Below, piece after piece: positions 19,218 to 53,378 of a stretch of DNA of 64,000 nucleotides. Numbering within the stretch: the first letter of the stretch is position 1; each line of letters begins with the position of its first letter. Source of the DNA: a virus (taxonomy: Duplodnaviria > Heunggongvirae > Uroviricota > Caudoviricetes). The notes under the pieces were generated by a model that saw only the letters and a list, made by a program, of their open reading frames with translations, was not told the origin of the DNA and did no database searches. The position numbers and the translations under genes are program-made. The stretch is from positions 21,726-85,725 of IMG/VR virus record IMGVR_UViG_3300035156_000038; one strand, written 5' to 3'.

Positions 19218-19649
19218 TTAATTATTAACCAACACCATAAACTTCTCACGATCAGCGACCAGTTGGAGTTGCCGTTGACGTTCTTCTTCAGCTTCTACTC
19301 GCTCTTTGTACTTCAAGTAGCAGCTAACCATGTAAGACTTCTCATCTGGTGTCATCCAGCCTGCTTGACAGGTGTAGACGGTTTCAAAGTCCCAGCCAGT
19401 GTAGACGGTGAAGACCACTTGCAAAGCCTTAGCTTTGTGTGTGAAGACTTCAATACCCACGTGGCTACGCGGTCTACTGCGATCTTCCAAGACCCATTCA
19501 CCAGTCTCCAAGATGGATTTAGCAAGGCTGATAACAGGTTCACCGACTACGGGGTTCTTTGCTTGAAGGCTTTCGGCAACCATATCCGAAATACTTTCCG
19601 TAGGCTTCTTATCTTCACCGAAGAAGTTCTTCAGCCATTTAAGTATCAT
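19218..19649 (-). CDS. hypothetical protein
   Basis: 143 aa; overlaps the upstream macro gene start (coupled). Confidence 0.45.
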   Translation of the reverse strand: MILKWLKNFFGEDKKPTESISDMVAESLQAKNPVVGEPVISLAKSILETGEWVLEDRSRPRSHVGIEVFTHKAKALQVVFTVYTGWDFETVYTCQAGWMTPDEKSYMVSCYLKYKERVEAEEERQRQLQLVADREKFMVLVNN

Positions 19650-20122
19650 TGTTCATCCTCTTTGATCCACAGGGTAGCGTTGTGAGCATGGAAGACAGCT
19701 TCGAAGATAGCGATAAGACGCTTCCTGTCACCGTTTGCCAGCCCACCGCCAATCAGCGGAAGGTGGATCGGGATTGCTGGCATGTATTGATCTACATACT
19801 TCAGCACGTTTTGCAGGCCACAGATAACCGCATCGTAGTCCACGTACACCTTGTAGGGATTACGTCCGTACTCTGCTTGGGTAATCACGTTAGCAATGCA
19901 GCGATCAGCGTAGGGGTTTTCCCAGATGATAGCTTGGCCCAGCTTCAGACCGTAGCGACGTTCAGCCTGCTTGTACACAAGGTACGCTTCCGGGTGAAGG
20001 TCTTTGATGATCTTCGCCACGCCACTACCCATCACGCCCTTGGCGTTACAGCCGTGGAGAACCAACGTACGCTTACCAGCCGTGGCGTTGAACAGGTCGC
20101 CAATTTGAATGTCAAGTGCCAT
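19646..20122 (-). CDS. macrodomain protein (ADP-ribose binding/processing)
   Basis: 158 aa; LVLHGCNAKGVMGSGVAKII… matches the macro-domain Gly-rich ADP-ribose-binding loop (NAAN…GGGV). Confidence 0.7.
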   Translation of the reverse strand: MALDIQIGDLFNATAGKRTLVLHGCNAKGVMGSGVAKIIKDLHPEAYLVYKQAERRYGLKLGQAIIWENPYADRCIANVITQAEYGRNPYKVYVDYDAVICGLQNVLKYVDQYMPAIPIHLPLIGGGLANGDRKRLIAIFEAVFHAHNATLWIKEDEQ

Positions 20123-20204
20123 TCTTCTTTCCTTTCTTCTTAACGTTGCCCATAGATACGCAGTGGGAACATTTGCAAGAACACTTCTTAGCCATGCTTG
20201 CTCC

Positions 20205-20468
20205 TTAGTTTACAATTGAATCCTTGTAGCATTCTGCCATATCGAAAAGCGCCCGTTCGCGTCCAATCACGGCCATACGCTTAACGGGGCTGGTAAGGTA
20301 GAACGAATTACCAGCATACTTTCCGTTAAGTTGAACAGCAGTGATTACGTCCGGTTCTTCCAATTCAAGAATCTTAAATAGTGCTAGCTCCGGGCCTTCA
20401 TCGCCTGTGTCAGAGTATAACACAAACTGCCCAGTAGCTAGCGGAATGCCGAACATATCCACTAGCAT
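20205..20468 (-). CDS. hypothetical protein
   Basis: 87 aa. Confidence 0.4.
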   Translation of the reverse strand: MLVDMFGIPLATGQFVLYSDTGDEGPELALFKILELEEPDVITAVQLNGKYAGNSFYLTSPVKRMAVIGRERALFDMAECYKDSIVN

Positions 20469-20484
20469 ACTACACTCCTAGCTA

Positions 20485-21870
20485 TTACACAATGTAGAAA
20501 CGCTTGCCGTATGCAGCGGTAGGGCCTGCATCGTACTGCTTCTTACCTTGCACGGTAGCTTGTGCACGGGCCATATCGCGGGTGTCGTAGAACGCAGCAT
20601 TCAGGGGTGCAACGTGGTAGCGAACACGGCCACCATCGGTAGGCAGGATCGGGCGTGGTGCACCGAAGAAGCCAGCAGGAGCAGCAGTTTTAGCAATCAC
20701 TTGCGCTTGGGTCGGGACAGCTTTCTTAGCAACCTTTTGTGGGTGCGGGGTAGGCTTGTTCGACACAGGCACGGCAGGCAGTTCGATTTCAGCAGGCTTC
20801 TTCGGTTGCAGGTACGCCAGATCAGCTTCGGTAAATGGCACGCCGATAGCTTCCCAGTAAACCACACCAGTGTCGCCCACCAGATGACGATTCACCGACG
20901 ACGACTGGATAAAGATGTCGAAGTTGCCGTGGTCGCCCGGATGCAGACGAACGTTGCTATCGGTAGGCAGGCCCAGCATTTGACGCGGGATGTCCTTACC
21001 TTGCTTGTCCTTACCGCCGTAAATCTTCTTGGTAGTACGGTCACGAACCAGAATCATCTTCGAAGGCTGCACACGTGCTTCCGTCTTGGTAAGCTGGTAG
21101 AAAGCAGCGCCCTTCAGGTATTGCATACGCTTAGTCAGGATGAAGTCACGGATTTCCAGCTTTTCACCAACAGCCAACGAAGGCACAACGTACAGCGAAA
21201 CGTCTTTGGTAACGTCAACCAGCGACGAAGTATCCACTGCACCAGCTTGAGCGTAGAACACGGTAGACGACTTCTGACCAGTTGCACGGGCAGCGTAGAA
21301 GTTGTTGAACGCCGCTTCGGTAGCCTGAGTCGAGTTAGCGAAGCCTGCTGCGGTTTGATCCCATGCTTGGATGTTACCCCGTGGGATGCCGATGCCAGCC
21401 AGCGTATCAACTTCGTTAGCAGGAACGCGGAACACGAAAGTCCAACGACCGTCACGCTGCGTCAGTTCGCGGATAGCTGCTGCTACGTCCGCACCACCGC
21501 CCTGAGTGTCACCGCCGTCAGTGGTCATCAGTACGACGAACGACACGTTAGGATCGGCGTAGTCAGGCATCGACTTAGCGAGCTTGATGATTTCCAGCAC
21601 GGTACGGAACAGCGGAGTGCCGCCCTGTGCAGGCCAGTTAGCCATAGGTTGCAGAACGTGCGGGTTCGAATTCACGATTTGACGGGTGATGCCACCGGGG
21701 CCGATACCGAAGCCGAACACCGAAACGATGGTGTCTTGCATTTGCTTGGTAGAAGCTTCCTTGACTGCCTTGATGTTTGCATTGAAGTCACGCTTCGCTG
21801 CGCTGGTCAGGCCGTGCATCGAACCCGAGTGATCGTTACCGAAAAAGATGTAATTCTTGATATGCGACAT
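20485..21870 (-). CDS. von Willebrand factor A (vWA) domain protein
   Basis: N-terminal IFFGNDHSGSM…T…TDGGD resembles a MIDAS motif (DxSxS…T…D); 461 aa; RBS AAAGGAGAAATACAATATG. Confidence 0.6.
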   Translation of the reverse strand: MSHIKNYIFFGNDHSGSMHGLTSAAKRDFNANIKAVKEASTKQMQDTIVSVFGFGIGPGGITRQIVNSNPHVLQPMANWPAQGGTPLFRTVLEIIKLAKSMPDYADPNVSFVVLMTTDGGDTQGGGADVAAAIRELTQRDGRWTFVFRVPANEVDTLAGIGIPRGNIQAWDQTAAGFANSTQATEAAFNNFYAARATGQKSSTVFYAQAGAVDTSSLVDVTKDVSLYVVPSLAVGEKLEIRDFILTKRMQYLKGAAFYQLTKTEARVQPSKMILVRDRTTKKIYGGKDKQGKDIPRQMLGLPTDSNVRLHPGDHGNFDIFIQSSSVNRHLVGDTGVVYWEAIGVPFTEADLAYLQPKKPAEIELPAVPVSNKPTPHPQKVAKKAVPTQAQVIAKTAAPAGFFGAPRPILPTDGGRVRYHVAPLNAAFYDTRDMARAQATVQGKKQYDAGPTAAYGKRFYIV

Positions 21871-21970
21871 ATTGTATTTCTCCTTTTAGTTTACCCTTTC
21901 GGGCTGAAATGGACTCGCTATCTTTAAAGCGAGCCGCTAGTTTACTACGTTCCTACCTAACTTGCAAGCT

Positions 21971-23602
21971 TTATCCGTGAAGACGTTGCTTGATTTCTGC
22001 GAAGGTTTGGAAGTTAACAACCTTACCATCACGGAACACTTCTTTAAGCTGACCGCTTTCTTCTTGGAACGGACGCTGGCAATCGTACAGCACGAAGTTG
22101 TCACCTTCCTTTTCCACACGCAGCAGGCCCTTAGCGGACTTCTTCGAACCCGAGTCGGTAGCCGGGTCTTTCTGGATGTCGCGTTCTTCGCCGTTGACGA
22201 TGCCCCACGTAGCCTTGACGGCCATGCCGAACGTGTCACGGGTGATGTACTGGTAGGTGTAGCTACCAATGCCGAACACTACGTTGCCAGCCGAGAAGCC
22301 TTTATCCATCAAGCGTTGCAGGATGGTTTCACAGCGTTCCAGCGTAATGCTATCGCCGTAGATCAGGCCCACGTGACGGTCGATGGTCTTGAAACCCTTG
22401 TCGGTCACAGTGCCGCCGAACTCATCCCAGAGGCATTCGACAGCGCCCTTGACTACGTGTTCTGGAATCTCTTTGCCTAGACGCAGCGTATCGCTAGAGC
22501 TAGCATCGAATTCGTAGAACTTACCTTCGTACTTAACTGCATCGTAGTCATCTTCGAATTCCCATGCAACACACTCGCCCACGTGCAGGTCAGTGATTTC
22601 TTTGACCTTCAGACCAGTAAGAATCTTGACAGGATCGCCCGAGTCAGGACGGAACACAACCTTGGCGTTACCAAACGCGTCTTCCTTACGGGCCAGAATT
22701 TCGGCCTTAAGCAGCTTGGTAAAGCGGGTGATGACAGCCCAGAAGTCCCACGTATCCGACACGATGGACACGATACCCGATGGGTAGGTTTCGGTAATCA
22801 GACGGCGGAAAGTACCCACTTCGTCTTCCTTACCACCCATGCACATTACTGAGTGTTCTGTTGCCGGGACGCTACCAGCTACAAGTTCCTTCGTAACGTC
22901 AGCACCGTAGTAGTCTTCCAGATAGTCGATTGCCAACAGGGCATCGGTTCCCGAACCAGCGCACATCAGGTGGGCTGCACCGCACTTAGCGGAGTCAGCA
23001 CGCCCCGACATACCACGCATCGAGAAGTCATGCGCTTGCCAGTTGACGAACATTGGGTCGCTACCAGTCAGCGTAGCATACTTGTTAATCAGGCGGCGGT
23101 ATTCGAACGCGATGGTGCCAACGGTGATCGGCTTCCACAGTTCGCACGAAAGAACCGTTTCCAGATAGTTAGTAAGCCAGAAGAAGGCCGGGTGCGTGTT
23201 ACGGATCGTCAGGAACGGAACCTTGATGTCCACACGCGAACCTTCATCCAGAGCCTTGATGACGATAGGCAGGTAGCCAAGATCGTGCAGGGCTGCGATG
23301 TGGTCAACTCGTACCGAGTCTGGGCCAAGGAAGGCGTCACAACGGCGCTTGTATTCTGCCACTACTTCAGCTTTAGGACGCTGGAAGAAGCCTTCGTTCC
23401 ATTCTTCGATCAGGAATTCCATCGTGAAGCCTTGCAGGCCAGTGAACACGACTTTACCATCAAAGGTAGAAGGCATACGGGCGTGGGTCAGGCTACGAGC
23501 CGTGAAGTTCGAATAGACGTACTCCGTACCTTTCGGGTATTGGTCGATGTGGCCGAGCTTGTAGCTATCGAGGGCCAGATGTGGGCGACGTTTCATTATC
23601 AC
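21971..23602 (-). CDS. nicotinamide phosphoribosyltransferase-family protein (NadV/Namat-like)
   Basis: 543 aa; N-terminal 'LDSYKLGH…YPKGTEYVYSNFTAR' is the NAMPT signature (DSYK); length fits. Confidence 0.8.
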   Translation of the reverse strand: MIMKRRPHLALDSYKLGHIDQYPKGTEYVYSNFTARSLTHARMPSTFDGKVVFTGLQGFTMEFLIEEWNEGFFQRPKAEVVAEYKRRCDAFLGPDSVRVDHIAALHDLGYLPIVIKALDEGSRVDIKVPFLTIRNTHPAFFWLTNYLETVLSCELWKPITVGTIAFEYRRLINKYATLTGSDPMFVNWQAHDFSMRGMSGRADSAKCGAAHLMCAGSGTDALLAIDYLEDYYGADVTKELVAGSVPATEHSVMCMGGKEDEVGTFRRLITETYPSGIVSIVSDTWDFWAVITRFTKLLKAEILARKEDAFGNAKVVFRPDSGDPVKILTGLKVKEITDLHVGECVAWEFEDDYDAVKYEGKFYEFDASSSDTLRLGKEIPEHVVKGAVECLWDEFGGTVTDKGFKTIDRHVGLIYGDSITLERCETILQRLMDKGFSAGNVVFGIGSYTYQYITRDTFGMAVKATWGIVNGEERDIQKDPATDSGSKKSAKGLLRVEKEGDNFVLYDCQRPFQEESGQLKEVFRDGKVVNFQTFAEIKQRLHG

Positions 23603-24015
23603 TCTCCTTGTTCAACTGCTGCGATTTGTGCTTGGATACGGGCGATAGCTAACGCCTTATCCGTCATGGCGCGGCCACTTCCGTAGGAGCCTGAACCGAG
23701 ACTTTCATCGCGGCGACCGTCTGCGTAGGTTGCAAAGAGGCTGTACCACGCGTCAGGCCCGAACATTTTATCGGTGTCGGCTTCACGTACGTCAATGTCC
23801 AGACCGTTTATTTCAACCATGAAGGTATTTGTGCTCCACGGAATCAGCGCCATACCTTGTGATTGGAAGTGTGGCAAGGAAGCGGCAAGGCCAGCCGTGC
23901 AGAACAACGTGCCGCACGGTTCCTTCCGGGCATACGAAGACAGGTCAAAGTTCGCTTCCGGCTGGGCTTGCACAGCGCCCAGCAGGGTAAACAGATTTTT
24001 CAAAACTTGGTTCAT
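23599..24015 (-). CDS. small protein, paralog A (PCGTLFCxAGLAA motif), coupled to the NAMPT-like gene
   Basis: 138 aa; RBS AAGGAGAAGAAAATG; stop overlaps the Namat start; paralog of 25299..25694. Confidence 0.55.
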   Translation of the reverse strand: MNQVLKNLFTLLGAVQAQPEANFDLSSYARKEPCGTLFCTAGLAASLPHFQSQGMALIPWSTNTFMVEINGLDIDVREADTDKMFGPDAWYSLFATYADGRRDESLGSGSYGSGRAMTDKALAIARIQAQIAAVEQGE

Positions 24016-24041
24016 TTTCTTCTCCTTATATGTGTCGTTAA

Positions 24042-24437
24042 TTAACGGCGGCGCTTCGACAGGCTCACGCGGCTGCTGGATTTGCTGCTGCTAGCGAAGC
24101 GGCTGGTGAAGGTTGCTGGACGGCTACGGTTGATAACCGTCTTCTGAACCACCGTCTTGTTGATGATGGTTTGACGCACTGGTGCACGGCCATAGCCACG
24201 GTCGTAGTCGGAACCACGCGAGCCACCACCGCTAAGTGCCATGCCAGCCATAGCGCCCAGAGCCATGCTACCCGCGTCGATGCCGCCGCTTTCTTGCTGG
24301 ACAACGACAGGCTGTGCCGGGGCTTGTTGAGCCGGGGCGGCGATAACTTGTGGCTGTTGGATTGGTTGGGGTGCAGGGCCGCAAGCCGACAGGGCAGCAG
24401 CGAACAGGGTAGCGATAGCGATTTTCGATTTGAACAT
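24042..24437 (-). CDS. lipoprotein (Gly/Ala/Pro-rich, basic C-terminus)
   Basis: Signal peptide plus lipobox LSAC; 131 aa; RBS AAGGAGAATCAAAATG. Confidence 0.55.
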   Translation of the reverse strand: MFKSKIAIATLFAAALSACGPAPQPIQQPQVIAAPAQQAPAQPVVVQQESGGIDAGSMALGAMAGMALSGGGSRGSDYDRGYGRAPVRQTIINKTVVQKTVINRSRPATFTSRFASSSKSSSRVSLSKRRR

Positions 24438-24465
24438 TTTGATTCTCCTTGGTTAAGTTGGTTGG

Positions 24466-25293
24466 TTAAACTACTACTACTTTGCCGCTTGCTACGGCTG
24501 CTTTGCCAGTAGCGCCGACAGGATTAGAAGTATATAAGCTATCTACCAATCCGTCAAACACTTTTTCACCAGCCGAGAAGATGCCGTGGGTTACATACAA
24601 CATAACTTTGCCAGTGGTCAGCTTGCGTAGCTCCTTAGCTAACTCCGTGAAGGTACGGCCACCGTCGCAGATGTCGTCCACGATCAGGAAGTCCTTATCT
24701 CCTACAGGCTCGCTGTACACTACGGTTCCCGTAATCTTACCCGACAGTACATCACGGGTCTTATCTGCACGAACAACGTTAGCATAACCGTACTCTTTGG
24801 CTATTGCAAGCACTTTCTTGTTAGCGCCTGCGTCTGGGCTAACTAGGATAGTTTGCCTGTTAGCGTGGTGGCTCATACCGAGGAAGTCGAACTTCGAATC
24901 CACGTGCATCAGGTTATCCAGTAGTGCAACGCCGACATCCGAGTGGATATTAAAGCACTGAACGGCACTGAACTTAAGGCCGTTGATGAAGTCGCAAGCA
25001 ACCTTCACAGACAGGCTTTCACCACGGGCGCACACACGGTCTTGGCGAGCGTATGGAAGGTACGGCATCTGCAATTCAATCAGGATGTCGTGCCCGAGTT
25101 CCCGGCGTACTGCGTCCACCAGCAGTGCCAGATTAAACAGGTCGTCGTTACCTTCAAATTCCAGCGTGATTTCTGCGAATGACGGCTGGTGTTCCACGGC
25201 TTCGGCGTCGATTTTGATAAACGTTTCCCCGGCAGGGAAGCGGCGAATCACGATAGATACATCCTTGTTGTCTACGGACAGTTGCAGGCTCAT
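24466..25293 (-). CDS. ribose-phosphate pyrophosphokinase-family protein (PRPP synthetase / Adps-like)
   Basis: PYLPYARQDR and LIVDDICDGGRTF are the PRS catalytic-flag and PRPP-binding motifs; 275 aa. Confidence 0.8.
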   Translation of the reverse strand: MSLQLSVDNKDVSIVIRRFPAGETFIKIDAEAVEHQPSFAEITLEFEGNDDLFNLALLVDAVRRELGHDILIELQMPYLPYARQDRVCARGESLSVKVACDFINGLKFSAVQCFNIHSDVGVALLDNLMHVDSKFDFLGMSHHANRQTILVSPDAGANKKVLAIAKEYGYANVVRADKTRDVLSGKITGTVVYSEPVGDKDFLIVDDICDGGRTFTELAKELRKLTTGKVMLYVTHGIFSAGEKVFDGLVDSLYTSNPVGATGKAAVASGKVVVV

Positions 25294-25298
25294 GTTTA

Positions 25299-25694
25299 TT
25301 ACTCCTTGGTTGTTTGTTCATTGGCTTTGTATTCCGCGATACGGTACTTCAGACGGGCGATAGCAAGCTGCTTATGGGTCAGTTTATCCCAGCCCAAATC
25401 TTCATCCAACCCGCCGCCACCCGCGTACTGGAACAGTTCGCTCATGGAGTTGGGGCCGAACAGGGGATCGCCACCACCGTCCCACACGGAAGTGCCGTTA
25501 AGGCTTGGGTCGCCGTCCCAGACCATGCCTAGTGCTTGGAATCGTGGCATGTTAGCAGCCAGCCCCGCTACACAGAATAGTGTACCGCAGGGCCTTTCCA
25601 TACGGAAGTTGTCAAGGTTGAACAGGCGTTCTGGCTGTGCTTCGACAGCAGCTAGCAGGGCTTCCAGATTTTCGATAATTGCTTGGTTACTCAT
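25299..25694 (-). CDS. small protein, paralog B (PCGTLFCxAGLAA motif), coupled to the PRS-like gene
   Basis: Start set at MSNQAI (RBS GAAGGAGAAGAACATG); 131 aa; shares LxAVEAQPE…PCGTLFCxAGLAA…P.FQ..GM with 23599..24015. Confidence 0.55.
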   Translation of the reverse strand: MSNQAIIENLEALLAAVEAQPERLFNLDNFRMERPCGTLFCVAGLAANMPRFQALGMVWDGDPSLNGTSVWDGGGDPLFGPNSMSELFQYAGGGGLDEDLGWDKLTHKQLAIARLKYRIAEYKANEQTTKE

Positions 25695-25821
25695 GTTCTT
25701 CTCCTTCGGGTTCGCCCGAGAACGGGCAGTTGGTTGGCCCCGGACAAGTGCCGGGCAGTTCATCGCCGCACACGCAGCGGGTTAGCTTCTTACGTGGGCG
25801 AACTTCGTAGTCGTTCGGGTC

Positions 25822-25995
25822 GTCAAGGGTGGGTGGCTGCGAGAACACCGAGCGCCCCTCCAAGCAACATGCAAATTGCACACATGGTACGTGCTTCTTG
25901 CGACCAGTATTGAATACTCATCGTCACATTGCCAAAAGAAAACAGCAGGAAGATAAGGGCTGCACCGCCGAAGAAGCCAATCAGGTTCTTAGTCA
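25822..25995 (-). CDS. small membrane protein (~57 aa)
   Basis: Sub-threshold ORF MTKNLIGFFGGAALIFLLF… with RBS AAGGAGTAACGAATG, downstream of the 26028–26056 promoter. Approximate. Confidence 0.3.
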
Positions 25996-26027
25996 TTCGT
26001 TACTCCTTAGTTACTTAAGATAAAGCT

Positions 26028-26056
26028 AGTATGCCTGCTTCCTACTTAGCTGTCAA
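26028..26056 (-). promoter_or_regulatory. sigma70-type promoter (leftward)
   Basis: Minus strand: TTGACA - 17 - CATACT. Confidence 0.5.
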
Positions 26057-26524
26057 GCTGTTTGGCAAAATAATTTCAATGCCAAGACGTTCCAGTTTGT
26101 CGTATAGGTCAACGCTAATCTTCCGCACAGGGAACACGATACTGCGCTTGCCGAGGCTTGCCATGTAGGTAGCCATATCCAAGCTACCCGTGCTTACTCC
26201 GTCCCACACAACAAGGGCTGCATCTGCGAAGTCGCCCATATCGTGATTACGTTGGATGCCAGCCATGACGTTGTACTTACCCCGGCTGTTCTTCTTAACA
26301 ACAGCGCCCGGAGCCTTGATGTTGTCCCAGTCAGCCGGGAAGTCGTGAATCTTCAAGCCAGCTTTCTTGGCAATCTCTTCGCCCAGCGTATCTACGCCCT
26401 TGGCCTTGCCGCTGACAACTTCGATAGCCTTGCCGTGTTCGGCCCAGAGGCCCGATTCAATAAGCGCACGCTTAACGGTGTCGTAGCTAGTGATGCTGCG
26501 GCTACCCGCGATGATAAGTTTCAT
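26042..26524 (-). CDS. SLOG-fold protein, DUF2493-like (predicted nucleotide/ligand binding)
   Basis: Start set at MKLIIAGSR (GGAG RBS); MKLIIAGSRS…VVSGKAKGVD…G pattern fits DUF2493/SLOG. Confidence 0.55.
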   Translation of the reverse strand: MKLIIAGSRSITSYDTVKRALIESGLWAEHGKAIEVVSGKAKGVDTLGEEIAKKAGLKIHDFPADWDNIKAPGAVVKKNSRGKYNVMAGIQRNHDMGDFADAALVVWDGVSTGSLDMATYMASLGKRSIVFPVRKISVDLYDKLERLGIEIILPNSLTAK

Positions 26525-26525
26525 G

Positions 26526-26765
26526 TTAGCTCCAAACGAAGTACAGTGCAACGAGTGCCACTACCAGAGTGATAGCACGATGCAGGGTTGATGTTTCTTT
26601 GTCATTGATGGGACAGAACGCGTACAGCATTCCGAAGCTGGTAATAAAGTAGGTAGCTACGATAGCCCCAGCGATTTTGAGTATTGCTTCCATTATTGTT
26701 CCTTTGCCCACTTGATAGCAGCCACAACGACATCGCCGTGGCAAGCCTTCGGATAGCAATAACAC
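26526..26765 (-). CDS. small membrane protein
   Basis: 79 aa, two hydrophobic helices. Confidence 0.4.
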   Translation of the reverse strand: MLLLSEGLPRRCRCGCYQVGKGTIMEAILKIAGAIVATYFITSFGMLYAFCPINDKETSTLHRAITLVVALVALYFVWS

Positions 26766-26986
26766 GCAAGCCGCTTCCCGTCCAGAGAACGTAAGTAGTC
26801 AAGCGTGATCTTGCCACGTTTTATTTCTCGCCATAGATACCTACGGTAGAGTTCGATAGCCACTTGCCGGGTAATCCCCGCCTCTTCGTTGATAGCGTAG
26901 ATATTCCCTAACGGCGATCCCCGGCCTATGTAGACATCATACTCTTGGTAGTGCTTGTTAACTACGGTTGCCACGAAGTTCCTCAC
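26693..26986 (-). CDS. DUF4326-like protein
   Basis: 97 aa; YIGRGS…GN…CYC.P..CHGD pattern as in DUF4326; overlaps neighbours. Confidence 0.45.
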   Translation of the reverse strand: MRNFVATVVNKHYQEYDVYIGRGSPLGNIYAINEEAGITRQVAIELYRRYLWREIKRGKITLDYLRSLDGKRLACYCYPKACHGDVVVAAIKWAKEQ

Positions 26987-27398
26987 GAATCTCCATTAGC
27001 AGCTTACCTAGCCAGTTCTGGCCCTCGCCGTAGCAAACACCCCAGAAGGTATCATACCACGTATTTTCTTCGATTAGCTCACGCTCTCCGGTAGCTAGCA
27101 AAGCAACGCGCAAGTAACCCCAGCTAAACTTCTCGCGTAGCAGGCCCCTCATAACATCCAGCTTGATAGCTTCCCAGTCAGGCCGTAGCGTGATTTGCTT
27201 GCCCATGCGTTTAGCTTGGCCGGGAGTTGTGCACAGCCGAATAGCTTCGCGGAATTCCTTCACCGTTGTTTTGGCAGCTTGGTAGGCATGTTCCACGGTG
27301 GGGTACATCACGCCTTCAAGCTCCACTTCGCAGAGCGTGAAGTTGGATAGCCAGCGGTAGTCACCGTGGAAGCCGCTGATAGGTAGCAGCTTGCTCAT
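26958..27398 (-). CDS. NADAR-domain protein (YbiA-like; ADP-ribose/NAD-related N-glycosidase family)
   Basis: FHGDYRWLSNF…YPTVEHAYQAAK matches the NADAR/DUF1768 core motif (Y..LSNF…EH.YQA.K). Confidence 0.7.
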   Translation of the reverse strand: MSKLLPISGFHGDYRWLSNFTLCEVELEGVMYPTVEHAYQAAKTTVKEFREAIRLCTTPGQAKRMGKQITLRPDWEAIKLDVMRGLLREKFSWGYLRVALLATGERELIEENTWYDTFWGVCYGEGQNWLGKLLMEIREELRGNRS

Positions 27399-27574
27399 AT
27401 TTTCTCCTTAGTCGATAAACTTCTTGTAGTGTGCTTCGAACATCTTGTCCATCTGAATCAGGATCAAGTCGTATTTGTCTGGCTTACCCTTGAACAGCTT
27501 ACGCCGTGCACGGATAGCTTCGTAGTCGGCTAGGACAAGTTTGTAGTGTTCCTCGCCCAGTGTGTCACGGTTCT

Positions 27575-27760
27575 TCAACGGTCGCCCCGGTTATCCCAGA
27601 AGTAATCACAGGTTTGCACTTCCTTGCCGTCTTCTTCCGCTACGTTAAGCGGCACAACAGCGAAGAACGACTGCCTGTAGGGATGGGCGTTAGCCGTGTA
27701 GCGGTAGCACTTCGATTTCTTCTTGCAAGCGTCGCCACAGCACATGGTAATGTCAGCCAT
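27575..27760 (-). CDS. small Cys-rich protein
   Basis: 61 aa with a CC…C…C cluster; RBS AAGGAGAAAACAAATG. Confidence 0.4.
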   Translation of the reverse strand: MADITMCCGDACKKKSKCYRYTANAHPYRQSFFAVVPLNVAEEDGKEVQTCDYFWDNRGDR

Positions 27761-27771
27761 TTGTTTTCTCC

Positions 27772-28110
27772 TTAAAAGTTCATTTCATGGAAGTATTGTT
27801 CTTCCGCTTCTACGTTCATAGCACACAACAGCGAACCATCCGGCAAAGGAATGTCGTTGATCCTGCGTGCGCAATCGGTGCAGTACCACGCACGCGAACC
27901 CTTGTTCCACCAGTAAGCGCCGGGACGCTGGCAGCGGGTAACGTTGCAGGAACCGAGCCGTTGGCCTTTGTCGGCCTTATTAGGGCCTTCCCAGCCATAA
28001 CGCCCGTAGTGGCCCTCTTGCGGCACTTCCACGGTCGCAGGCTGGGGTGGGTTGTGGCGAGTATTGAAGTTGCCTTGGTTGACCCGCTTGTGCATTCTGG
28101 ATAGCTTCAT
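27772..28110 (-). CDS. Cys-rich putative zinc-binding protein
   Basis: Start moved to MKLSRMHK; two C…C pairs (CNVTRC, CTDC). Confidence 0.4.
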   Translation of the reverse strand: MKLSRMHKRVNQGNFNTRHNPPQPATVEVPQEGHYGRYGWEGPNKADKGQRLGSCNVTRCQRPGAYWWNKGSRAWYCTDCARRINDIPLPDGSLLCAMNVEAEEQYFHEMNF

Positions 28111-28180
28111 AAAACCCCCGTTGAAATAGAATAGGGCCATTCTACCGAGGTAGAACAGCCCTGTCTACTACTTTCGTAGC

Positions 28181-28438
28181 TTACTGCTTAAAAATGTCCA
28201 GCGTGCCTTTAGGCAGCTTCAGTATGTCCATCAGGCTACCGCCAAGGTATTCCAGATCAGGCGTGTACACCTGTGGCACGGTACGATGCCCGAGCGTCTT
28301 AAACGCGTGCATACCACTTTCGTCTTCGTCAATCTTTACTACCTTGTGGGCGATGCCCAGTCGTTCGAAGTGCTGGATAACTGCAACGCAACCAGCGCAG
28401 CCATTACCCGAGAACACCGTCAAGTGGTTCGTTACCAT
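28181..28438 (-). CDS. nrdH: glutaredoxin-like protein (NrdH-like)
   Basis: 85 aa; redox CAGC near N-term, …RTVPQVY…YLGG pattern; adjacent to RNR. Confidence 0.6.
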   Translation of the reverse strand: MVTNHLTVFSGNGCAGCVAVIQHFERLGIAHKVVKIDEDESGMHAFKTLGHRTVPQVYTPDLEYLGGSLMDILKLPKGTLDIFKQ

Positions 28439-30580: not shown

Positions 30581-31117
30581 TTAAGCTGGAAGCCAGCCTT
30601 CGTGGTAGTCATAAATTGTCTTGCGGCTTCCGTCTGGGTTGTACGGATCACCACGAACCTGTAGCAGCAAATCTTTCAGCACTTCTACCTGCATACGAAT
30701 CAGGTGTTCGTTCTCCATCGTCAGTTCGGGCGGGAAGCCTTTCTCACTTTGGCCTTCTTCACCGCCGTAGTCCCGGCCCGAAGTCATCTGCTTAGCCATA
30801 TCGTTAGCTAGGCCGAGGTCGCTGTAGCCACGAACAATCATACGATCTTCCGAAGTGGCGAAGGCGCTTGACAAGAACGCCTCGTTGCATTCCACTTCAC
30901 CGATAATGCGGTAGGCTACTACCACTTTTCCTTGCATGTTGCGATGTTGCGACGGGATGTATTCAATCGGAAAATCCAGATCGAAGCCTAGCACTTTAAG
31001 GAACGGTGCAATCAGCTTGTCATTCGTAGGATTGATAAAGTCAATCATGCGAAGGTGGGCCAGTTCAGGGACAATGCCGCCCATCAGGTCTGTTACCGAG
31101 ATACTTTTCATCATCAT
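30581..31117 (-). CDS. hypothetical protein
   Basis: 178 aa. Confidence 0.45.
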   Translation of the reverse strand: MMMKSISVTDLMGGIVPELAHLRMIDFINPTNDKLIAPFLKVLGFDLDFPIEYIPSQHRNMQGKVVVAYRIIGEVECNEAFLSSAFATSEDRMIVRGYSDLGLANDMAKQMTSGRDYGGEEGQSEKGFPPELTMENEHLIRMQVEVLKDLLLQVRGDPYNPDGSRKTIYDYHEGWLPA

Positions 31118-31581
31118 TCCTTTGGAACCAGATCGCTAACGTCTGCCTTGACATAGTTAGACGGCTTGCGGAATTTACCTACCGCATCTTTAATAACTTG
31201 ACGCTTGTACTTGGCGTTGTGATGCAGCGTGAATGCTGGATCGTACGCAAAGAGTTCACCGTCAGCAGGGAACTTCGACAGGTTGTTAGCGTTGACGCGG
31301 CCCAGAGCCTTAGCCACATCGTAGCCAGCCACTTCCAGCTTTTGCAGCAGGCCGACCGACACAACGAACAGGTCACATGCTTCCTTCAGTAGTTCAGCCT
31401 TGTTGCCGCTTTCGAACGCGTCAATCACTTCAGCAGTTTCTTCGAAACAGAAGCTAATCTGCGCGTCAATACTGGCATCGTCAACCGTAGTCAGGTTCCC
31501 GGCGATGTCATTCATTTCACGGATTTCGTCGTACGCTACCCGGACTACCTTACCAATGTTACTCATTTTATTTCCTTTCAA
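31114..31581 (-). CDS. MazG-like nucleotide pyrophosphohydrolase
   Basis: 155 aa; acidic ExxE…EE…D spacing (FEETAEVIDAFE…EACD) typical of the all-alpha NTP-PPase fold. Confidence 0.45.
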   Translation of the reverse strand: MKGNKMSNIGKVVRVAYDEIREMNDIAGNLTTVDDASIDAQISFCFEETAEVIDAFESGNKAELLKEACDLFVVSVGLLQKLEVAGYDVAKALGRVNANNLSKFPADGELFAYDPAFTLHHNAKYKRQVIKDAVGKFRKPSNYVKADVSDLVPKE

Positions 31582-39577: not shown

Positions 39578-39949
39578 TTATTCGAACAGGCGTTCGACTT
39601 CATTGTTAAGATACTCATACTGCTTCGTTTCCTGTACTAGCTTGGAAGCGTTGTAGGTAGAGTATCCATTTTCATGCAACCAGTTTAGCAGCTTCACTGC
39701 GTTAACTTTATGCACATTCGTTGATAGCGTCTTCGCTACTATGTGTCCTTTAGGAAACCCTCTAGTGAACGTCACCCAGAACGGGAATTCCATCAGCACC
39801 GACACGGGTTCACCGCTACGGTATTCCATGCCACGGTTGCGCATCACAACTTCGGTAGCAGCAAGGCGCATCTGTTCGTAAATGGCCTTGCTTGCCTTCC
39901 TTGTTGCTTTCTTCTGCGCTCTAGTGGCCTTTACACGCCGCTCAGCCAT
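39578..39949 (-). CDS. hypothetical basic protein
   Basis: Start set at MAERRVKA (TAATG overlap with the upstream membrane-protein gene). Confidence 0.4.
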   Translation of the reverse strand: MAERRVKATRAQKKATRKASKAIYEQMRLAATEVVMRNRGMEYRSGEPVSVLMEFPFWVTFTRGFPKGHIVAKTLSTNVHKVNAVKLLNWLHENGYSTYNASKLVQETKQYEYLNNEVERLFE

Positions 39950-40140
39950 TACGACCAGAGTTGGATCATGCCACAGGTGAAGATGATAGCCGTGGAAGCC
40001 GCTAGAAGCGCCCCGCCAACCCACACGACCTTAGCCCAGTTAGAACCGTAACCTTTGGCCGTGTCTACCGTGATACCTGTAAACACAAAGATTGCTGCCA
40101 GTGCCAGAAGCGTAACGCCCACCTTCATTGCCAGTTCCAT
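39949..40140 (-). CDS. small membrane protein
   Basis: 63 aa, two TM helices; RBS AAGGGGAGTAAACATG. Confidence 0.4.
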   Translation of the reverse strand: MELAMKVGVTLLALAAIFVFTGITVDTAKGYGSNWAKVVWVGGALLAASTAIIFTCGMIQLWS

Positions 40141-46373: not shown

Positions 46374-47645
46374 TCAACCGCCTACCGTGTAGTGTTTCGG
46401 GTTCTTACCTTCGTGGACGGCTGCAATCTGCGGCACAAGTGCCTTCAGTGCATCACGCTCTTTCAGGTAGCCAGCCATTTTCAGGCGGTCGTCAATCAGC
46501 ATTCCAGCAGCACGCGCTTCCACAAGGATAGCCACGTTGGCAAGAACACCGCCAAGGTGCGGCACACCGTCAGCCGGGTCAAATTCTTCGCCTGCTTCCC
46601 ACGAAGCAAGGTGGCGTTTGATAGCCGCGATGTAGATGCTAGCTTCCACCGGAGTGTTAGCGAAGTTAGCCTTGCCGTACTTCAGCGAACCGTTGTACAG
46701 GGCCAGTGAACCGTAAGCCGAAGCAAGGTTGCTCCACATATTCAGCGGAATCGAAGCCAGCCCGTATTGCTTCTTCGGGTTGGTGTCGGGCGGCGAATCT
46801 TCGTCGTGGTGGACGAACCCACGGTCAGGGTATGCCTCCTTCGCTGGCGTAACAACCGGGCAAACACGGTAGGCAACGATGTCATTTTGTGCACCGTCAT
46901 GCTGCCAGAATTGGCTAGAAGCATCACGTGCGCTTGCCTCAAACTCGTTAGCACGCACATTGAAAGCTGGACGTTCGCCGTCACGATAGCGAACATCCAC
47001 ACGGGTGCCGTCTGGTACAGGGCATTCACCGCCGTTCCAGCTAATGAAGCCGTCCTTACCCACTTGCACAGTTTCAGTGCCGCCAGCAGCTTCCACCACA
47101 TCAGCCACCATAGCTTGCAGGGTGACAGGCTCTTGCACAGGGCGGTAGTAGGCGATGCAGCCAAGGCTCGCACCAACGCCCCACCACCAAGTATCGGCTT
47201 CATGTCTTGCGTTGGTCTGTCCCCGGTTAAACATCACTTCAACCTTACCTTCGATGGTAGGTTGCACGCCAGTATTCTTGATCCAGCCTTCAGCGAGCAT
47301 GACCGCTTCGGCACGCTTAGCAACAGCACGCTTGCGTTGATCCTTCTTACGTGCCTTGCGGATTGCCTTGACAGCATTGACGGCTTCACGCAAACCGAAG
47401 AACGTAAATTCGCCAGTCTTAGGCTCCCACCGCTGTTCTTGTGGGCAGTTGGTGATGCGGCAATCTTCGTCAACCATCAGGAAAGAGTTACCGTTGCTGT
47501 AGTCAAACTTGGTGCGGCAACCCGAAGCCCATTTGAACCCGAGCTTGAACATCAGTTCTTGTGCACGATGGGATTGTTCAAGGTTTTTAGTACGAATAAA
47601 TCCACCCTTGAACTTGTCGGTGATGTGGTTTGTTGCAAAACTCAT
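46374..47645 (-). CDS. hypothetical protein (C-terminal domain possibly dNTP-pyrophosphohydrolase-like)
   Basis: 423 aa; conserved-looking C-terminal block NPKKQYGL…; not recognised with confidence. Confidence 0.4.
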   Translation of the reverse strand: MSFATNHITDKFKGGFIRTKNLEQSHRAQELMFKLGFKWASGCRTKFDYSNGNSFLMVDEDCRITNCPQEQRWEPKTGEFTFFGLREAVNAVKAIRKARKKDQRKRAVAKRAEAVMLAEGWIKNTGVQPTIEGKVEVMFNRGQTNARHEADTWWWGVGASLGCIAYYRPVQEPVTLQAMVADVVEAAGGTETVQVGKDGFISWNGGECPVPDGTRVDVRYRDGERPAFNVRANEFEASARDASSQFWQHDGAQNDIVAYRVCPVVTPAKEAYPDRGFVHHDEDSPPDTNPKKQYGLASIPLNMWSNLASAYGSLALYNGSLKYGKANFANTPVEASIYIAAIKRHLASWEAGEEFDPADGVPHLGGVLANVAILVEARAAGMLIDDRLKMAGYLKERDALKALVPQIAAVHEGKNPKHYTVGG

Positions 47646-49918: not shown

Positions 49919-50914
49919 TTACGCTTCGTAGTTCTCGCCCGGAATCAGCTTGCGGTATTGAATCCAGCCCTTCAGGTTGCCCGACCACAGTTGGTAGTCA
50001 CGATCCATGTGCGTGATGCCCGGTTGCCACGTGCTAGGTTGCCACGGGATGTTGCGGTACTTCACTTCACGGTTGATCGCTTCAACCTTGTCTTGCATAG
50101 GCGTAGCGCAGTGTTCAAACGCACTTGCGTGCTTCTTATCACTACCTACCAGACGGTCGTACACTTCGATGCTCTTAGCAATGCCGTAGCCTTCGTTGCG
50201 ATACGAGACAGCAGCGCAGCGTGCACACGAAATTTTGATTGCTTCGTCCAGCGTGACTTCAACGATTTGGTCTTGCTCGTCGTAGATGCCATACCACACG
50301 CCTTCACGCCCATCAGCGTACACGTAGGTATCAATGTAAGGCAAGTGCCATTCACCCGGCTTCAGGTATTGTGGCGTAGCTGCTTCCATAGCTTCACGCA
50401 TCACACGGGCAAGCTCACGAATCGTAGGGTCAGCAGCATCGTCGTCACGCAGCCACCAGAAGTTTTCCAGTTCGGTTGCGCTAAGAACCGTCTTCATCAT
50501 CTGGAACGGCTCAAGCAGGCGGTTGTACACTTGCTTGTGGTAGCCAGCTTCCTTAAAGTTCCTTGCCATGCCAATAGCTAGCTGCTTAGCATCTTCCCAA
50601 GCTTCTTCGGGTGACACGGGGGCTGCACCCCACGAGCCTTTAACTTTGGCATCAAAGTCTTCGCCCTTATCTTGCATACCAGCTTGGTTAGCCCCGAAGC
50701 GTACAGGACGCCCGTTAAGCTGCAACAGCATCTTGTCGAACGGCACAGCACGCGAGCTAAAGCTATTACGCGACAGCATACGGTGCGTGTTCAGTTCGGC
50801 CAAGATCAGACGCGGATACTCGATTTCGAACGTAATCATTGGTACGCCGAACGGGCTTACCGAGTAGCACAGCACCGTTACTTTGATGCCGCATTTTCCT
50901 TCAAATGTTTTCAA
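49919..50914 (-). CDS. thyX: flavin-dependent thymidylate synthase (ThyX-like)
   Basis: ELNTHRMLSRNSFSSRAV resembles the ThyX RHR-x7-S motif; 331 aa; starts at TTG with RBS GGAGAAGAAGA. Confidence 0.5.
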   Translation of the reverse strand: MKTFEGKCGIKVTVLCYSVSPFGVPMITFEIEYPRLILAELNTHRMLSRNSFSSRAVPFDKMLLQLNGRPVRFGANQAGMQDKGEDFDAKVKGSWGAAPVSPEEAWEDAKQLAIGMARNFKEAGYHKQVYNRLLEPFQMMKTVLSATELENFWWLRDDDAADPTIRELARVMREAMEAATPQYLKPGEWHLPYIDTYVYADGREGVWYGIYDEQDQIVEVTLDEAIKISCARCAAVSYRNEGYGIAKSIEVYDRLVGSDKKHASAFEHCATPMQDKVEAINREVKYRNIPWQPSTWQPGITHMDRDYQLWSGNLKGWIQYRKLIPGENYEA

Positions 50915-51739: not shown

Positions 51740-52203
51740 TTTTGTTTCTCCTTTGGGTTGTTACGGTAGAACACGTGTCCACCGATTGAAAAAATTCGTT
51801 TCATCTTAGAAGCCCATGTGGGCTTCACTTGTTTGCTATGAAAGTAGCTAGCGTTCGGCACGACAGGCTTTACCTTCCTCACTTCGCCCAACCGTTCCAA
51901 CATCGCATCATCGGCCTTCAGCCGCATACCACGGCGGTAGCCTGAGAATTGATGCTTTTGCTTCACTACTTCACAAGCTGTTAGGTTACGAGTCGTCATG
52001 CGATGCTTTACAACATCATACACGGCCCGTTGGCCCGTTAGGGGTTCGCCCCTTGCTTCGTCATGGATAACCCACGCAAAGCAAATGTCGTCACTACTGA
52101 TAACCTTCGCTATTGGCGCATCAGGTGCCTTGGGCGGGACTGCCAGCGTAGTTGTTACACAAGATAGCAACAACACAAGCAGCCCCCTTACGGCCCAGCG
52201 CAT
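51736..52203 (-). CDS. secreted cell-wall hydrolase, SleB/CwlJ (Hydrolase_2)-like
   Basis: Signal peptide MRWAVRGLLVLLLSCVTTTLA; …WVIHDEARGEP…AVYDVVKHRM… matches the Hydrolase_2 motif (EARGE…AV..VV.NR). Confidence 0.55.
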   Translation of the reverse strand: MRWAVRGLLVLLLSCVTTTLAVPPKAPDAPIAKVISSDDICFAWVIHDEARGEPLTGQRAVYDVVKHRMTTRNLTACEVVKQKHQFSGYRRGMRLKADDAMLERLGEVRKVKPVVPNASYFHSKQVKPTWASKMKRIFSIGGHVFYRNNPKEKQK

Positions 52204-53378
52204 CAGCCCTTGTGCAACAGGTATTCGTTCGAAATTGCCTTGAACGAAAAGTCGCGGCCATACGCCTTGAATACAATACCTTCACGCATCACGCCTTCAT
52301 TGTCACCCTTGCCGGATGCGAACGTAAGGGCCTTCTGCACAACGTCATCGCCATCCTTCAGGCCGAGAATTTCACGCAGCGTGCCTTCAGCTACAACCGT
52401 AGCGTGATTGATTTCGCTAATACCTGCAAACAGGCGGCGTTCACCCGGTAGGTAGTATTTCTGTTCGTCAATGTCAAAGATGTCAAACAGGTGGAATTCC
52501 ACACCGCTAACCTTCTCGTAGTTACCCTGAATATCCGGGGCAACAACTTCGCCTTGCAGGGCAATGCTACCGTCCGTCATCTTGCTAGCACCGCTACACA
52601 GGTAGGCAAGCAGTGGAGCAGCGGCCTTGTGGAAGTTGCTGTTGCCTTCCAGCGGCAGTAGGACGTTACGCGAGCAGATGCCAAACACAGGCTCTTGCTT
52701 GCCGCCGAAGAAGCGAATCTTCAGGCGAGTCCACAGCGAATCCTTGATGCCGAGAAGCTTCTTAGCGTCAGCGTAGTATTCGCTATCCGGGTTCACACGG
52801 AACACCGTCATGCTGCTACCATCCTTCTTCATCGAAGCTTCGAACACGGTATCCAGTTCACGCACAACCAAGTGGCCGTAGTTCTGCACACGCTCTTGAT
52901 CCGTCTTCTTGATGAAGTACGGGAACTCACGCGTCTTGCTAGGCATCAAGCTAGTGTTGGCGTTCTTTTCTTCAGGGGCTTCCCACTTCTGGATGCCCAG
53001 TGCTTCGGTAACGTCCGTGCCTTCAGCCAGACCCGATTTCAGGAATTCAGGGCTGTTACCAAATTTGGTCATCATCGACCCGGCCAGCGGCAGCAGCAGA
53101 CCTTGGGAGATTTGCTTTTTAAGCTTGATCGTCTTCAGACGTTCGCCTTGGACGCCGCCGTATTCCTTCGGTGCGTAGCCTTCTTTGGTCAGGAACGGTG
53201 CAATCGTGTTTGGAATCCACGAATCAATTTCGAAGTACACGGCTTGGTCGCCTACAGCGAATTCACCCTTCTTCACCACGACTTGCCAGCCCTTGATAAG
53301 AGCCAGTTCGATACGGTCAGCGCCGGGGATGGGCAGCAAGGCTTTCACCACTTCGATAGTTGCCAGTTTGCGAGTCAT
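52203..53378 (-). CDS. ATP-dependent RNA ligase (DraRnl/Rnl5-like)
   Basis: N-term MTRKLATIEVVKALLPIPGADRIELALIKGWQVVVKKGEF typical of this RNA ligase family; nucleotidyltransferase motif I KKDGSS (KxDG). Confidence 0.65.
   Translation of the reverse strand: MTRKLATIEVVKALLPIPGADRIELALIKGWQVVVKKGEFAVGDQAVYFEIDSWIPNTIAPFLTKEGYAPKEYGGVQGERLKTIKLKKQISQGLLLPLAGSMMTKFGNSPEFLKSGLAEGTDVTEALGIQKWEAPEEKNANTSLMPSKTREFPYFIKKTDQERVQNYGHLVVRELDTVFEASMKKDGSSMTVFRVNPDSEYYADAKKLLGIKDSLWTRLKIRFFGGKQEPVFGICSRNVLLPLEGNSNFHKAAAPLLAYLCSGASKMTDGSIALQGEVVAPDIQGNYEKVSGVEFHLFDIFDIDEQKYYLPGERRLFAGISEINHATVVAEGTLREILGLKDGDDVVQKALTFASGKGDNEGVMREGIVFKAYGRDFSFKAISNEYLLHKG

Follow-up and report, generated by a model that had tools for sequence, protein, structure and literature searches.

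A Gln-type macrodomain protein near the NARP1 genes of an uncultured phage: a predicted ADP-ribosyl hydrolase with a probable role in counter-defence

The window analysed here is a stretch of 64,000 nucleotides (nt) from a virus of the Caudoviricetes (IMG/VR record IMGVR_UViG_3300035156_000038, positions 21,726 to 85,725). Its minus strand carries, at 19646-20122, a gene for a stand-alone protein of 158 amino acids (aa), which belongs, as judged from sequence profiles and a predicted structure, to the ALC1-like macrodomain class. Sequence alignment places it in the Gln type of that class, like SCO6735, BT1257, T4 Tk.4 and Gary Adpp. The protein is very probably an active hydrolase acting at C1'' of ADP-ribosyl groups and used for counter-defence. 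For its main substrate, ADP-ribose-1''-phosphate (ADPR-1''-phosphate) is tentatively proposed, at somewhat less than even confidence; the product would pass to the NAD+-rebuilding enzymes Adps and Namat (together NARP1), the genes of which lie nearby. This choice has a slight edge over a role like that of the phage protein AdfM because of conserved synteny, closer homologs embedded in NARP1 operons, and enrichment of NAD+ salvage genes around homologs.

The bounds of the open reading frame (ORF) coincide exactly with the positions given above. The ORF starts with ATG, carries AAGGAAAG, which resembles a ribosome-binding site (RBS), just 5' of its start, and ends in a TGA stop codon that shares the four letters ATGA with the start codon of the following gene. 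A first-pass annotation of this DNA, made from the letters alone, had claimed a macrodomain here without giving a strand; the claim is confirmed and the minus strand can be added. The Gly-rich motif quoted in that annotation corresponds to residues 24-39 of the protein and lies within HGCNAKGVMGSGVAKII (residues 23-39). A plus-strand ORF at 19649-20143 was rejected as a gene, being an antisense shadow without supporting evidence.

The Pfam search proposed earlier as a check remained below the curated threshold: PF01661 (Macro) gave 17.8 bits against a gathering score of 22, over residues 23-69 only. About 40% of the homologs do reach this threshold, as judged from precomputed Pfam assignments. 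Other searches covered more of the protein. The PHROG family phrog_335 matches residues 4-156 with an E value of 1.3e-31, and the single sequence matches solved structures of the DarG macrodomain of Mycobacterium tuberculosis (5m3i; 2.4e-5), of Thermus aquaticus DarG and of SCO6735. A profile of 37 homologs matched BT1257 (2e-23), SCO6735 (7e-20), the DarG structures (2e-15 for M. tuberculosis, and 7e-14), and TARG1 and Poa1p (about 2e-11). The AlphaFold2 (AF2) model has a predicted local distance difference test score (pLDDT) of 94.7 and a predicted template modelling score (pTM) of 0.90. When this model was compared with the Protein Data Bank (PDB) by Foldseek, the top ranks were taken by DarG, BT1257, TARG1, Poa1p, SCO6735 and ALC1 (E 2e-11 to 3e-8; 2e-11 to 2e-9 for DarG, BT1257 and TARG1), the template modelling (TM) scores of the best macrodomain matches were about 0.74-0.81, and almost all of the top 50 matches were macrodomains. 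In the BFVD viral structure library the best matches were phage or viral macrodomains, including a tk.4 protein. The assignment is far beyond chance, and structure prediction, from which the first-pass annotation had expected a possible refutation, returned the macro fold.

The residues expected to hold the ligand are strongly conserved. In the 37 homologs D9, H23, G24, N26, G34, A36, Y50, G62, Q82, G86, Y96, P122, G125, G127 and L128 are invariant, and the elements of the ADP-ribose site (D9, G29-G34 and I124-L128), all invariant or nearly so, align with the loops of DarG and SCO6735. D9 and the two Gly-rich loops are therefore the probable ADP-ribose-binding elements, in agreement with the earlier remark that the Gly-rich loop fits ADP-ribose binding. 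The family is large: at E <= 1e-3 it numbers 18,228 cluster representatives, and at E <= 1e-10 still 10,008. Homologs occur in 857 records of cultured phages, all at less than 60% identity; an identical protein was found on two metagenomic contigs (91 kb and 21 kb), and a megablast search for near-identical DNA in cultured phages found none. The phage is known only from metagenomes and represents an uncultured lineage of about 90 kb.

The position of Q82 defines the subclass. This residue occupies the site of the catalytic lysines of DarG (Lys80) and TARG1 (Lys84), and it aligns with Gln85 of SCO6735. Among 76 aligned sequences the position is Gln in 73 and Lys in only three, namely two DarG sequences and PhiKZ gp104. 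H23, N26, Q82, G125 and G127 align with H24, N27, Q85, G126 and G128 of SCO6735, in which Gln85Ala abolishes activity, Asn27Ser nearly does so and Gly128Glu reduces it; SCO6735 cleaves thymidine-linked ADP-ribose from DNA and rescues Escherichia coli from DarT (PMC9411070). The mobile loop, longer in the SCO6735/BT1257 subclass than in DarG and TARG1, has the length of that subclass here; it aligns with SCO6735 free of gaps, whereas DarG needs gaps there. In neighbour-joining (NJ) trees the Gln type (all gathered phage relatives plus SCO6735) and the Lys type (the two DarG sequences plus PhiKZ gp104) were split with 100% bootstrap support. SCO6735 and BT1257 differ from the window protein in being cellular rather than phage proteins, and the strongly basic character of SCO6735 contrasts with the near neutrality of the window protein. 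The Val or Ile proposed to hold the catalytic water in this subclass (Val25 in SCO6735) is not conserved here either: the position is Gly24 in the window protein and is Gly in 60 of the 76 sequences, Gln in the Gary and Pakpunavirus types and Val in a few.

The curated family matches of the protein are to DarG only: NCBIfam NF048014 gave an E value of 5.6e-8 and 32.4 bits against a cut-off of 250 (positions 3-120 of a 338-position model), and PADLOC gave 1.5e-9. The common fold, of which DarG is the top Foldseek match, and the Asn of the N-x-x-G-V-M-G loop are shared with DarG2 and PhiKZ gp104. These, however, are Lys-type proteins (K80 in DarG, K78 in gp104) without a His before the Asn, while Gln82 stands here, and DarG2 has a domain at its C terminus that binds DarT and a darT gene beside it, neither of which is present here (PMC5179494, PMC13309987). 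Identity with DarG2 was rejected for want of the catalytic Lys, the C-terminal domain and the darT neighbour, and on a score of 32 bits against 250. PhiKZ gp104, a Lys-type DarG2-like AdfM that removes DarT2 marks from DNA (PMC5179494, PMC13309987), is 26% identical to the window protein (40 bits). TARG1 and Poa1p share the ALC1-like fold (Foldseek E about 2e-9), and both cut substituents at C1'' of ADP-ribose; identity is 16-22%, the Lys84/Asp125 dyad of TARG1 is missing from the window protein, and His23 and Asn26 are common to it and Poa1p.

Two genes upstream of the macrodomain gene encode a Prs-like and a NAMPT-like protein, and sequence evidence identifies this pair as NARP1. The identification was made because the second protein carries GSYTYQYITRD, the Namat signature GSX-phi-X-phi-X-phi-TRD that sets Namat apart from ordinary Nampt, and because the proteins are 40% (full length) and 37% identical to the Namat and Adps of a Felixounavirus phage; in relatives the Adps candidate is always paired with Namat. 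The pair lies 1.8-5 kb upstream of the macrodomain gene, in a region, from about 31.6 kb down to 18.5 kb, in which every gene is read from the minus strand and the gaps are short. Their order is ribonucleotide reductase (RNR), glutaredoxin (Grx), NADAR, DUF4326, SLOG/YAcAr, DUF6197-like, Prs-like, a 131-aa ORF, a DUF6197-like paralog, NAMPT-like, a 461-aa protein with a von Willebrand factor A (vWA) fold, an 87-aa ORF, the macrodomain gene and four small genes, followed by a convergent lysis/tail module. The NADAR, SLOG and NARP neighbours listed in the first-pass annotation were all recovered on the strand of the macrodomain gene, within 7.3 kb.

This arrangement is conserved: of 19 close IMG/VR loci, 15 show the order Adps-Namat-vWA-macro, which recurs in four further metagenomic contigs (L004, L005, L006 and L016), and the vWA gene lies between Namat and the macrodomain gene in all syntenic relatives of the lineage. 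Outside the lineage, L064 has Adps-vWA-macro, L070 has Adps-macro-Namat, the order of Vibrio phage Gary, with a macrodomain 43% identical to that of the window, and L061 has macro-Adps-Namat (41%); a further locus, L065, has the NARP1 pair 3.5-5 kb from a homolog. In L070 and L061 the macrodomain gene falls within two genes of NARP1, the distance used in the study of Adpp, and these proteins from inside NARP1 operons are closer to the window protein than is either tested enzyme of the family, T4 AdfM or Gary Adpp. In Felixounavirus the homolog lies 7.5 kb downstream of NARP1; elsewhere among cultured phages it stands beside RNA ligase 2 in Avunavirus and 6 kb from NADAR in Bacillus phage Nate.

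For a survey of gene context, homologs were dereplicated at 60% identity of the macrodomain into 55 clusters. A NAD+ salvage gene was found within 10 kb in 16 of them, and some NAD or ADP-ribose gene in 21. NMNAT-Nudix genes of the NARP2 type were near in seven, three of which had a Nampt-like gene as well. About 4% of phages carry NARP1 and about 1% carry NARP2, anywhere in the genome (bioRxiv 10.64898/2026.01.28.702374). The link of the macrodomain to NAD genes is more than mere proximity and recurs independently outside the lineage, although it is not obligatory. The coordinated arsenal against ADP-ribosylation and NADases that had been proposed for this locus gains support from the conserved synteny and from the enrichment (16 of 55 clusters, against about 5% of phages with NARP1 or NARP2); the part of that proposal concerning Thoeris was not borne out, as discussed below.

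Several side observations concern these contexts. Homologs situated 0.5-8 kb from NMNAT-Nudix genes of the NARP2 kind were seen in L014, L055, L062, L072, L043, L047, L054 and L079, four of which have a Nampt without the Namat motif. The homolog of jumbo phage L014 is also near an ADPrib_exo_Tox transferase (4 kb), an RNA ligase and a DUF2828/DUF7788 protein. A pairing of the macrodomain with a DUF2828/vWA protein common to this phage and the window was considered and rejected, the two large proteins having no detectable sequence similarity. Sister phages vary in whether they carry the island at window positions 20205-28438 (glutaredoxin to vWA, with NADAR, SLOG and NARP1), which in L007, L023, L020 and L031 is missing within the visible 5-10 kb.

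The closest functional precedent for a macrodomain acting together with NARP1 is Adpp of Vibrio phage Gary (KNV71_gp137), the purified protein of which turns ADPR-1''-phosphate, the product of RES-domain NAD+ phosphorylases, into ADP-ribose; the operon Adps-Adpp-Namat, termed NARP1-AP, overcomes the defence aRES, NARP1 rebuilding NAD+ from ADP-ribose, and Adpp mutants lose the anti-aRES effect, H24A being the mutant built (bioRxiv 10.64898/2026.01.28.702374). In the same study, which scanned two genes on either side, 15% of the phages with NARP1 had a macrodomain protein linked to that operon (bioRxiv 10.64898/2026.01.28.702374). Gary Adpp and the window protein are both stand-alone macrodomains of about 158 aa in phages with Adps and Namat. 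They share the motifs H-x-C-N, [G/T]-Q and P-L-IG-x-GL, the equivalent of Gary H24 is the invariant H23, and the window gene lies near NARP1 on the same strand. The Gln type is also seen in Gary Adpp and in the other NARP1-associated macrodomains listed. The two proteins differ in that identity is about 28%, that loop 1 of Gary contains Arg (RMGRG) where the window protein has VMGSG, and that the Gary gene lies between Adps and Namat, whereas two other genes separate the window gene from Namat.

A mechanism on the Adpp model may be envisaged as follows. The protein would bind the ADP-ribosyl group in the usual cleft, with D9 contacting the adenine and the Gly-rich loops 29-36 and 124-128 wrapping the diphosphate and distal ribose. 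H23, N26 and Q82 would hold the distal ribose in place together with a water molecule; the water would cut off whatever substituent C1'' bears and leave free ADP-ribose as the product. The gene appears to close a co-oriented island of putative early genes (NADAR, DUF4326, SLOG, Adps, Namat, vWA and macro), in which the enzyme would turn ADPR-1''-phosphate, made by RES-type NAD+ phosphorylase defences such as aRES, back into ADP-ribose. Adps and Namat would then rebuild NAD+ from ADP-ribose according to the logic of NARP1-AP. A second activity may be to strip thymine in single-stranded phage DNA of ADP-ribose of the DarT2 type, and the two would not exclude each other.

A number of observations weigh against an Adpp-like role. 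Gary Adpp (31 bits; tree distance 2.18) and T4 AdfM (39 bits; 2.20) are equally remote from the window protein. Ser30 of Poa1p is replaced by Val30 in the window protein, a difference that counts little, since the active Gary enzyme has Arg there. The macrodomain gene is the third gene downstream of Namat, at 1.85 kb on the same strand, and lies one gene outside the two-gene window of the Adpp study. No NAD or ADP-ribose gene was near the homolog in 34 of the 55 clusters, and the neighbours of the NARP2 type do not use ADP-ribose as substrate. Sister phages (L007/L023, L031 and L020) keep the macrodomain gene in place while the island from Grx to vWA is missing within the 5-10 kb visible, a further difference from Gary; because of this the macrodomain is apparently useful without NARP1. 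A scan for promoters and terminators to define an operon gave counts at or below chance, and co-transcription with NARP1 is plausible only.

The strongest alternative is that the protein is an orphan antitoxin like AdfM, which removes the ADP-ribose attached by DarT2 to thymine in phage single-stranded DNA and so restores replication. This is almost as probable as the Adpp-like role, though likewise at less than even confidence, and it is compatible with that role; in an extended form of the idea, the NADAR of the island would clear the guanine adducts of DarT1 likewise. A transposon screen on DarTG2 singled out one gene, that of T4 Tk.4 (AdfM), and T4 becomes sensitive to DarTG2 when it is knocked out; this role was shown genetically rather than on DNA in vitro (bioRxiv 10.1101/2025.11.20.689424), which tempers the argument. 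Like the window protein, T4 Tk.4 is a Gln-type stand-alone phage macrodomain, and the motifs GD, HGCN, MGSGVA, TQ and P-x-IG-x-G are found in both. Both phages have a NADAR gene, T4 carrying AdfN as well as AdfM. However, the proteins are only 26% identical (E 4e-9), the loop after TQ is shorter in T4 and without basic residues, and no NAD+ salvage gene is annotated in T4 within about 7 kb on the start side of tk.4 or about 3 kb on the other side.

An AdfM-like role is further favoured by the closest profile structures, BT1257 and SCO6735, the latter a thymidine-ADP-ribose hydrolase that needs the equivalent of Q82, by the curated matches to DarG only, and by the persistence of the gene in sister phages without NARP1. 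It is also consistent with four IMG/VR loci (L050, L071, L077 and L092; three clusters at 60%) in which NADAR lies directly downstream of the macrodomain gene, and such pairs may constitute a paired module for repair of thymine and guanine ADP-ribosylation. The NADAR of these loci starts about 300-400 nt past the end of the tblastn match to the macrodomain (around 10001-10900 in L050, L071 and L092; 148-1300 in L077). On the other side, the catalytic Lys of DarG and of the PhiKZ AdfM is missing, the DNA-binding Lys34 of SCO6735 is Ser33 here, T4 Tk.4 groups weakly with NARP1-linked Adpp proteins rather than with the window clade in NJ trees, and the strong and recurrent linkage to NAD+ salvage is left unexplained.

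Homology alone cannot choose between the AdfM and Adpp roles, because one sequence family holds both T4 AdfM and Gary Adpp. Among the reference proteins tested by BLAST, the best were the macrodomains of RYC (57 bits), Felix-type phages (53) and JG004 (52), all from NARP1-associated or NARP1-carrying phages. Choice by BLAST or phylogeny nevertheless failed: the two tested enzymes lie at equal distance from the window protein, they fall into one weakly supported group of the NJ trees and the window clade into another, and deeper nodes have 17-67% bootstrap support. Charge and isoelectric point were uninformative, since the validated DNA-acting proteins of T4 and PhiKZ are acidic, and basic residues in loop 1 and the mobile loop follow no consistent pattern across validated enzymes. 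The general idea of an anti-defence function, raised in the first-pass annotation, gains from both comparisons, the T4 relative countering DarTG2 and the NARP1-embedded relative countering a NAD+-depleting defence.

Action on another ADP-ribose conjugate is unlikely. The conjugates to be considered are those on proteins, those on RNA (for example CmdT-type mRNA marks, or the products of phage or host ADP-ribosyltransferases), O-acetyl-ADP-ribose, and the ADP-ribose-derived signals of Thoeris. SCO6735 and TARG1 also de-modify proteins, the homolog of L014 is 4 kb from an ADPrib_exo_Tox transferase, and the source databases annotate the window protein as O-acetyl-ADP-ribose deacetylase. No tested phage relative has such activities, however, and the ORFs of the window that were screened yielded no ADP-ribosyltransferase. 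The Thoeris role suggested earlier is not supported: the match to ThsA_Macro (PF20016) is weak, with 17.4 bits against a cut-off of 25 over residues 88-144 only, neither ThsB nor a TIR gene is a neighbour, and the phage counters to Thoeris signals reported in one study (binding and sequestration, or degradation by the RyDEP glycosidase) involve no macrodomain.

A housekeeping function in RNA repair, by which the protein would clear the ADPR-1''-phosphate produced by a Tpt1/KptA 2'-phosphotransferase during RNA ligation, as Poa1p does in tRNA splicing of yeast, is very improbable. Homologs in Vequintavirinae adjoin RNA ligase 2, an RNA ligase is near the macrodomain gene in L054, L056, L066, L070 and L079, the window has an RNA ligase itself, and Poa1p is among the structural matches. 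The window ligase is nevertheless 32 kb from the macrodomain gene, the T4-type RNA-ligase pathway is not known to leave a 2'-phosphate, and ORF 39578-40024, with a sub-cut-off Pfam hint of Tpt1/KptA (E 6.6e-4), was rejected as such an enzyme for lack of support in PHROGs or solved structures. That the protein is a non-catalytic binder, sponge or sensor of ADP-ribose, as some macrodomains that only bind their ligand and as its small stand-alone form might suggest, is scarcely credible, every catalytic residue of the Gln type being invariant across homologs down to 37% identity.

A broader and rather improbable speculation may be added. Gln-type phage macrodomains could be bifunctional C1'' hydrolases, acting on DarT2-modified thymine and on ADPR-1''-phosphate and handing the freed ADP-ribose to NARP1, and Namat, the vWA protein with its metal ion-dependent adhesion site (MIDAS), a Cys-rich 27-aa peptide and the macrodomain protein could in this lineage form a new, extended NARP1 variant in which the MIDAS protein takes part. 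If this were true, DNA repair and NAD+ regeneration would be coupled through one enzyme.

The features of the locus are collected in Table 1. The vWA fold of the 461-aa protein covers roughly the first 200 residues. Its family is extensive and well conserved, with more than 925 homologs found; their identity reaches 63% and is about 50-60% among the best listed, but only 15 records are of cultured phages, with Caulobacter phage Cr30 (43%) as the best. The 87-aa ORF has no family match in Pfam or PHROGs; relatives have a counterpart in this place with weak conservation (31-58% identity), although in some it lies between Namat and vWA. The 143-aa gene that follows the macrodomain gene has no match in Pfam, PHROGs, NCBIfam or PADLOC and was found in 3 of 19 sister loci at 28-36% identity, once elsewhere in its locus. 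A further small ORF of 27 aa, MAKKCSCKCSHCVSMGNVKKKGKKNGT, at 20112-20195 on the minus strand, overlaps the start of the macrodomain gene by 11 nt and has a strong RBS, AAGGAG, 5 nt upstream; it is below the default size of the ORF lister. Similar peptides rich in Cys and Lys (MAKKCTCKCSHCKAMGNVPKKGK and others) occur in the same position in L004, L006, L016 and L025.

Table 1. Macrodomain protein and neighbouring features of the window.
Feature	Position	Strand	Basis or remarks
Macrodomain gene, 158 aa	19646..20122	minus	Stand-alone Gln-type ALC1-like predicted ADP-ribose hydrolase; ORF, PHROG, PDB, AF2 and Foldseek
Key residues of the macrodomain protein	D9, H23, N26, Gly loop 29-36, Q82, Gly loop 124-128		Alignment of 37 homologs
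143-aa gene after the macrodomain gene	19218-19649	minus	Translationally coupled by the ATGA overlap
87-aa ORF between the vWA and macrodomain genes	20205..20468	minus	ORF list
vWA/MIDAS protein, 461 aa	20485..21870	minus	MIDAS DHSGS; AF2 pLDDT 82; Foldseek vWA/integrin I domains about 1e-6
Namat (nicotinamide ADP-ribose transferase), second NARP1 enzyme	21971..23602	minus	Pfam NAPRTase, NAMPT_N; phrog_448 6e-195
Adps candidate (Prs-like ADP-ribose pyrophosphate synthetase), first NARP1 enzyme	24466..25293	minus	Pfam Pribosyltran_N; phrog_619 2e-78
SLOG (YAcAr) protein	26042..26551	minus	Pfam YAcAr 38.4 bits against 28.2
DUF4326 protein	26693..26986	minus	Pfam DUF4326 75.6 bits
NADAR protein	26958..27398	minus	Pfam NADAR 94.3 bits against 35.1; NCBIfam YbiA-type N-glycosidase domain 88.5 against 73.7

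The family matches of the NADAR protein make it a candidate either for an AdfN-like DNA glycohydrolase acting on guanine-ADP-ribose or for an enzyme resembling YbiA. Homologs are present in 489 phage records, including Vibrio phage Gary (43% identity), and phage NADARs remove DarT1 adducts; the gene is present in only part of the window lineage. The DUF4326 gene adjoins NADAR in L001, L004, L006 and L025. In the window its start overlaps the end of the NADAR gene, and its 3' end overlaps the start of the next minus-strand ORF. The SLOG gene upstream of Adps is conserved in most relatives. Two paralogous minus-strand genes (23599-24015 and 25299-25763; 39% identity, E 1e-24) bracket Adps; in sister contigs, the relatives of their products match Pfam DUF6197 and often stand in tandem beside NARP1.

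At higher positions of the minus strand, the window encodes a MazG-like pyrophosphohydrolase (31114-31581), a protein with the N-terminal domain of dATP/dGTP diphosphohydrolase (46374-47645) and a ThyX-like protein (49919-50914), the co-occurrence of which hints at editing of the nucleotide pool or at modified DNA bases. A replication module comprises an RNA ligase with PHA02142 OB-fold and RNA_ligase domains (52203-53378) and an ATP-dependent DNA ligase (55541-56908), also on the minus strand.

The earlier interpretation of this locus is supported in substance; a role towards ADPR-1''-phosphate and RES-type defences such as aRES was not named in it. The present result is a sound annotation within a known phage enzyme family rather than a new kind of system, and the concept that a phage macrodomain cooperates with genes for NAD rebuilding and de-ADP-ribosylation is already in the literature. 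Through this result, a gene that a Pfam search by itself overlooks, from an uncultured phage lineage of about 90 kb, gains a well-founded annotation. The context survey links phage macrodomains to NARP1, and also to NARP2-type genes and NADAR. One family, with the 10,008 representatives counted at the stricter threshold, holds both of the counter-defence roles described for phage macrodomains in 2025-2026, and the inseparability of AdfM and Adpp by homology is a practical warning for pipelines that annotate anti-defence genes. The question is thereby raised whether a single promiscuous enzyme has two uses or whether two specialised subfamilies exist. If the protein is active on both substrates, it would give the phage a compact means of countering DarTG2 as well as RES-type defences.

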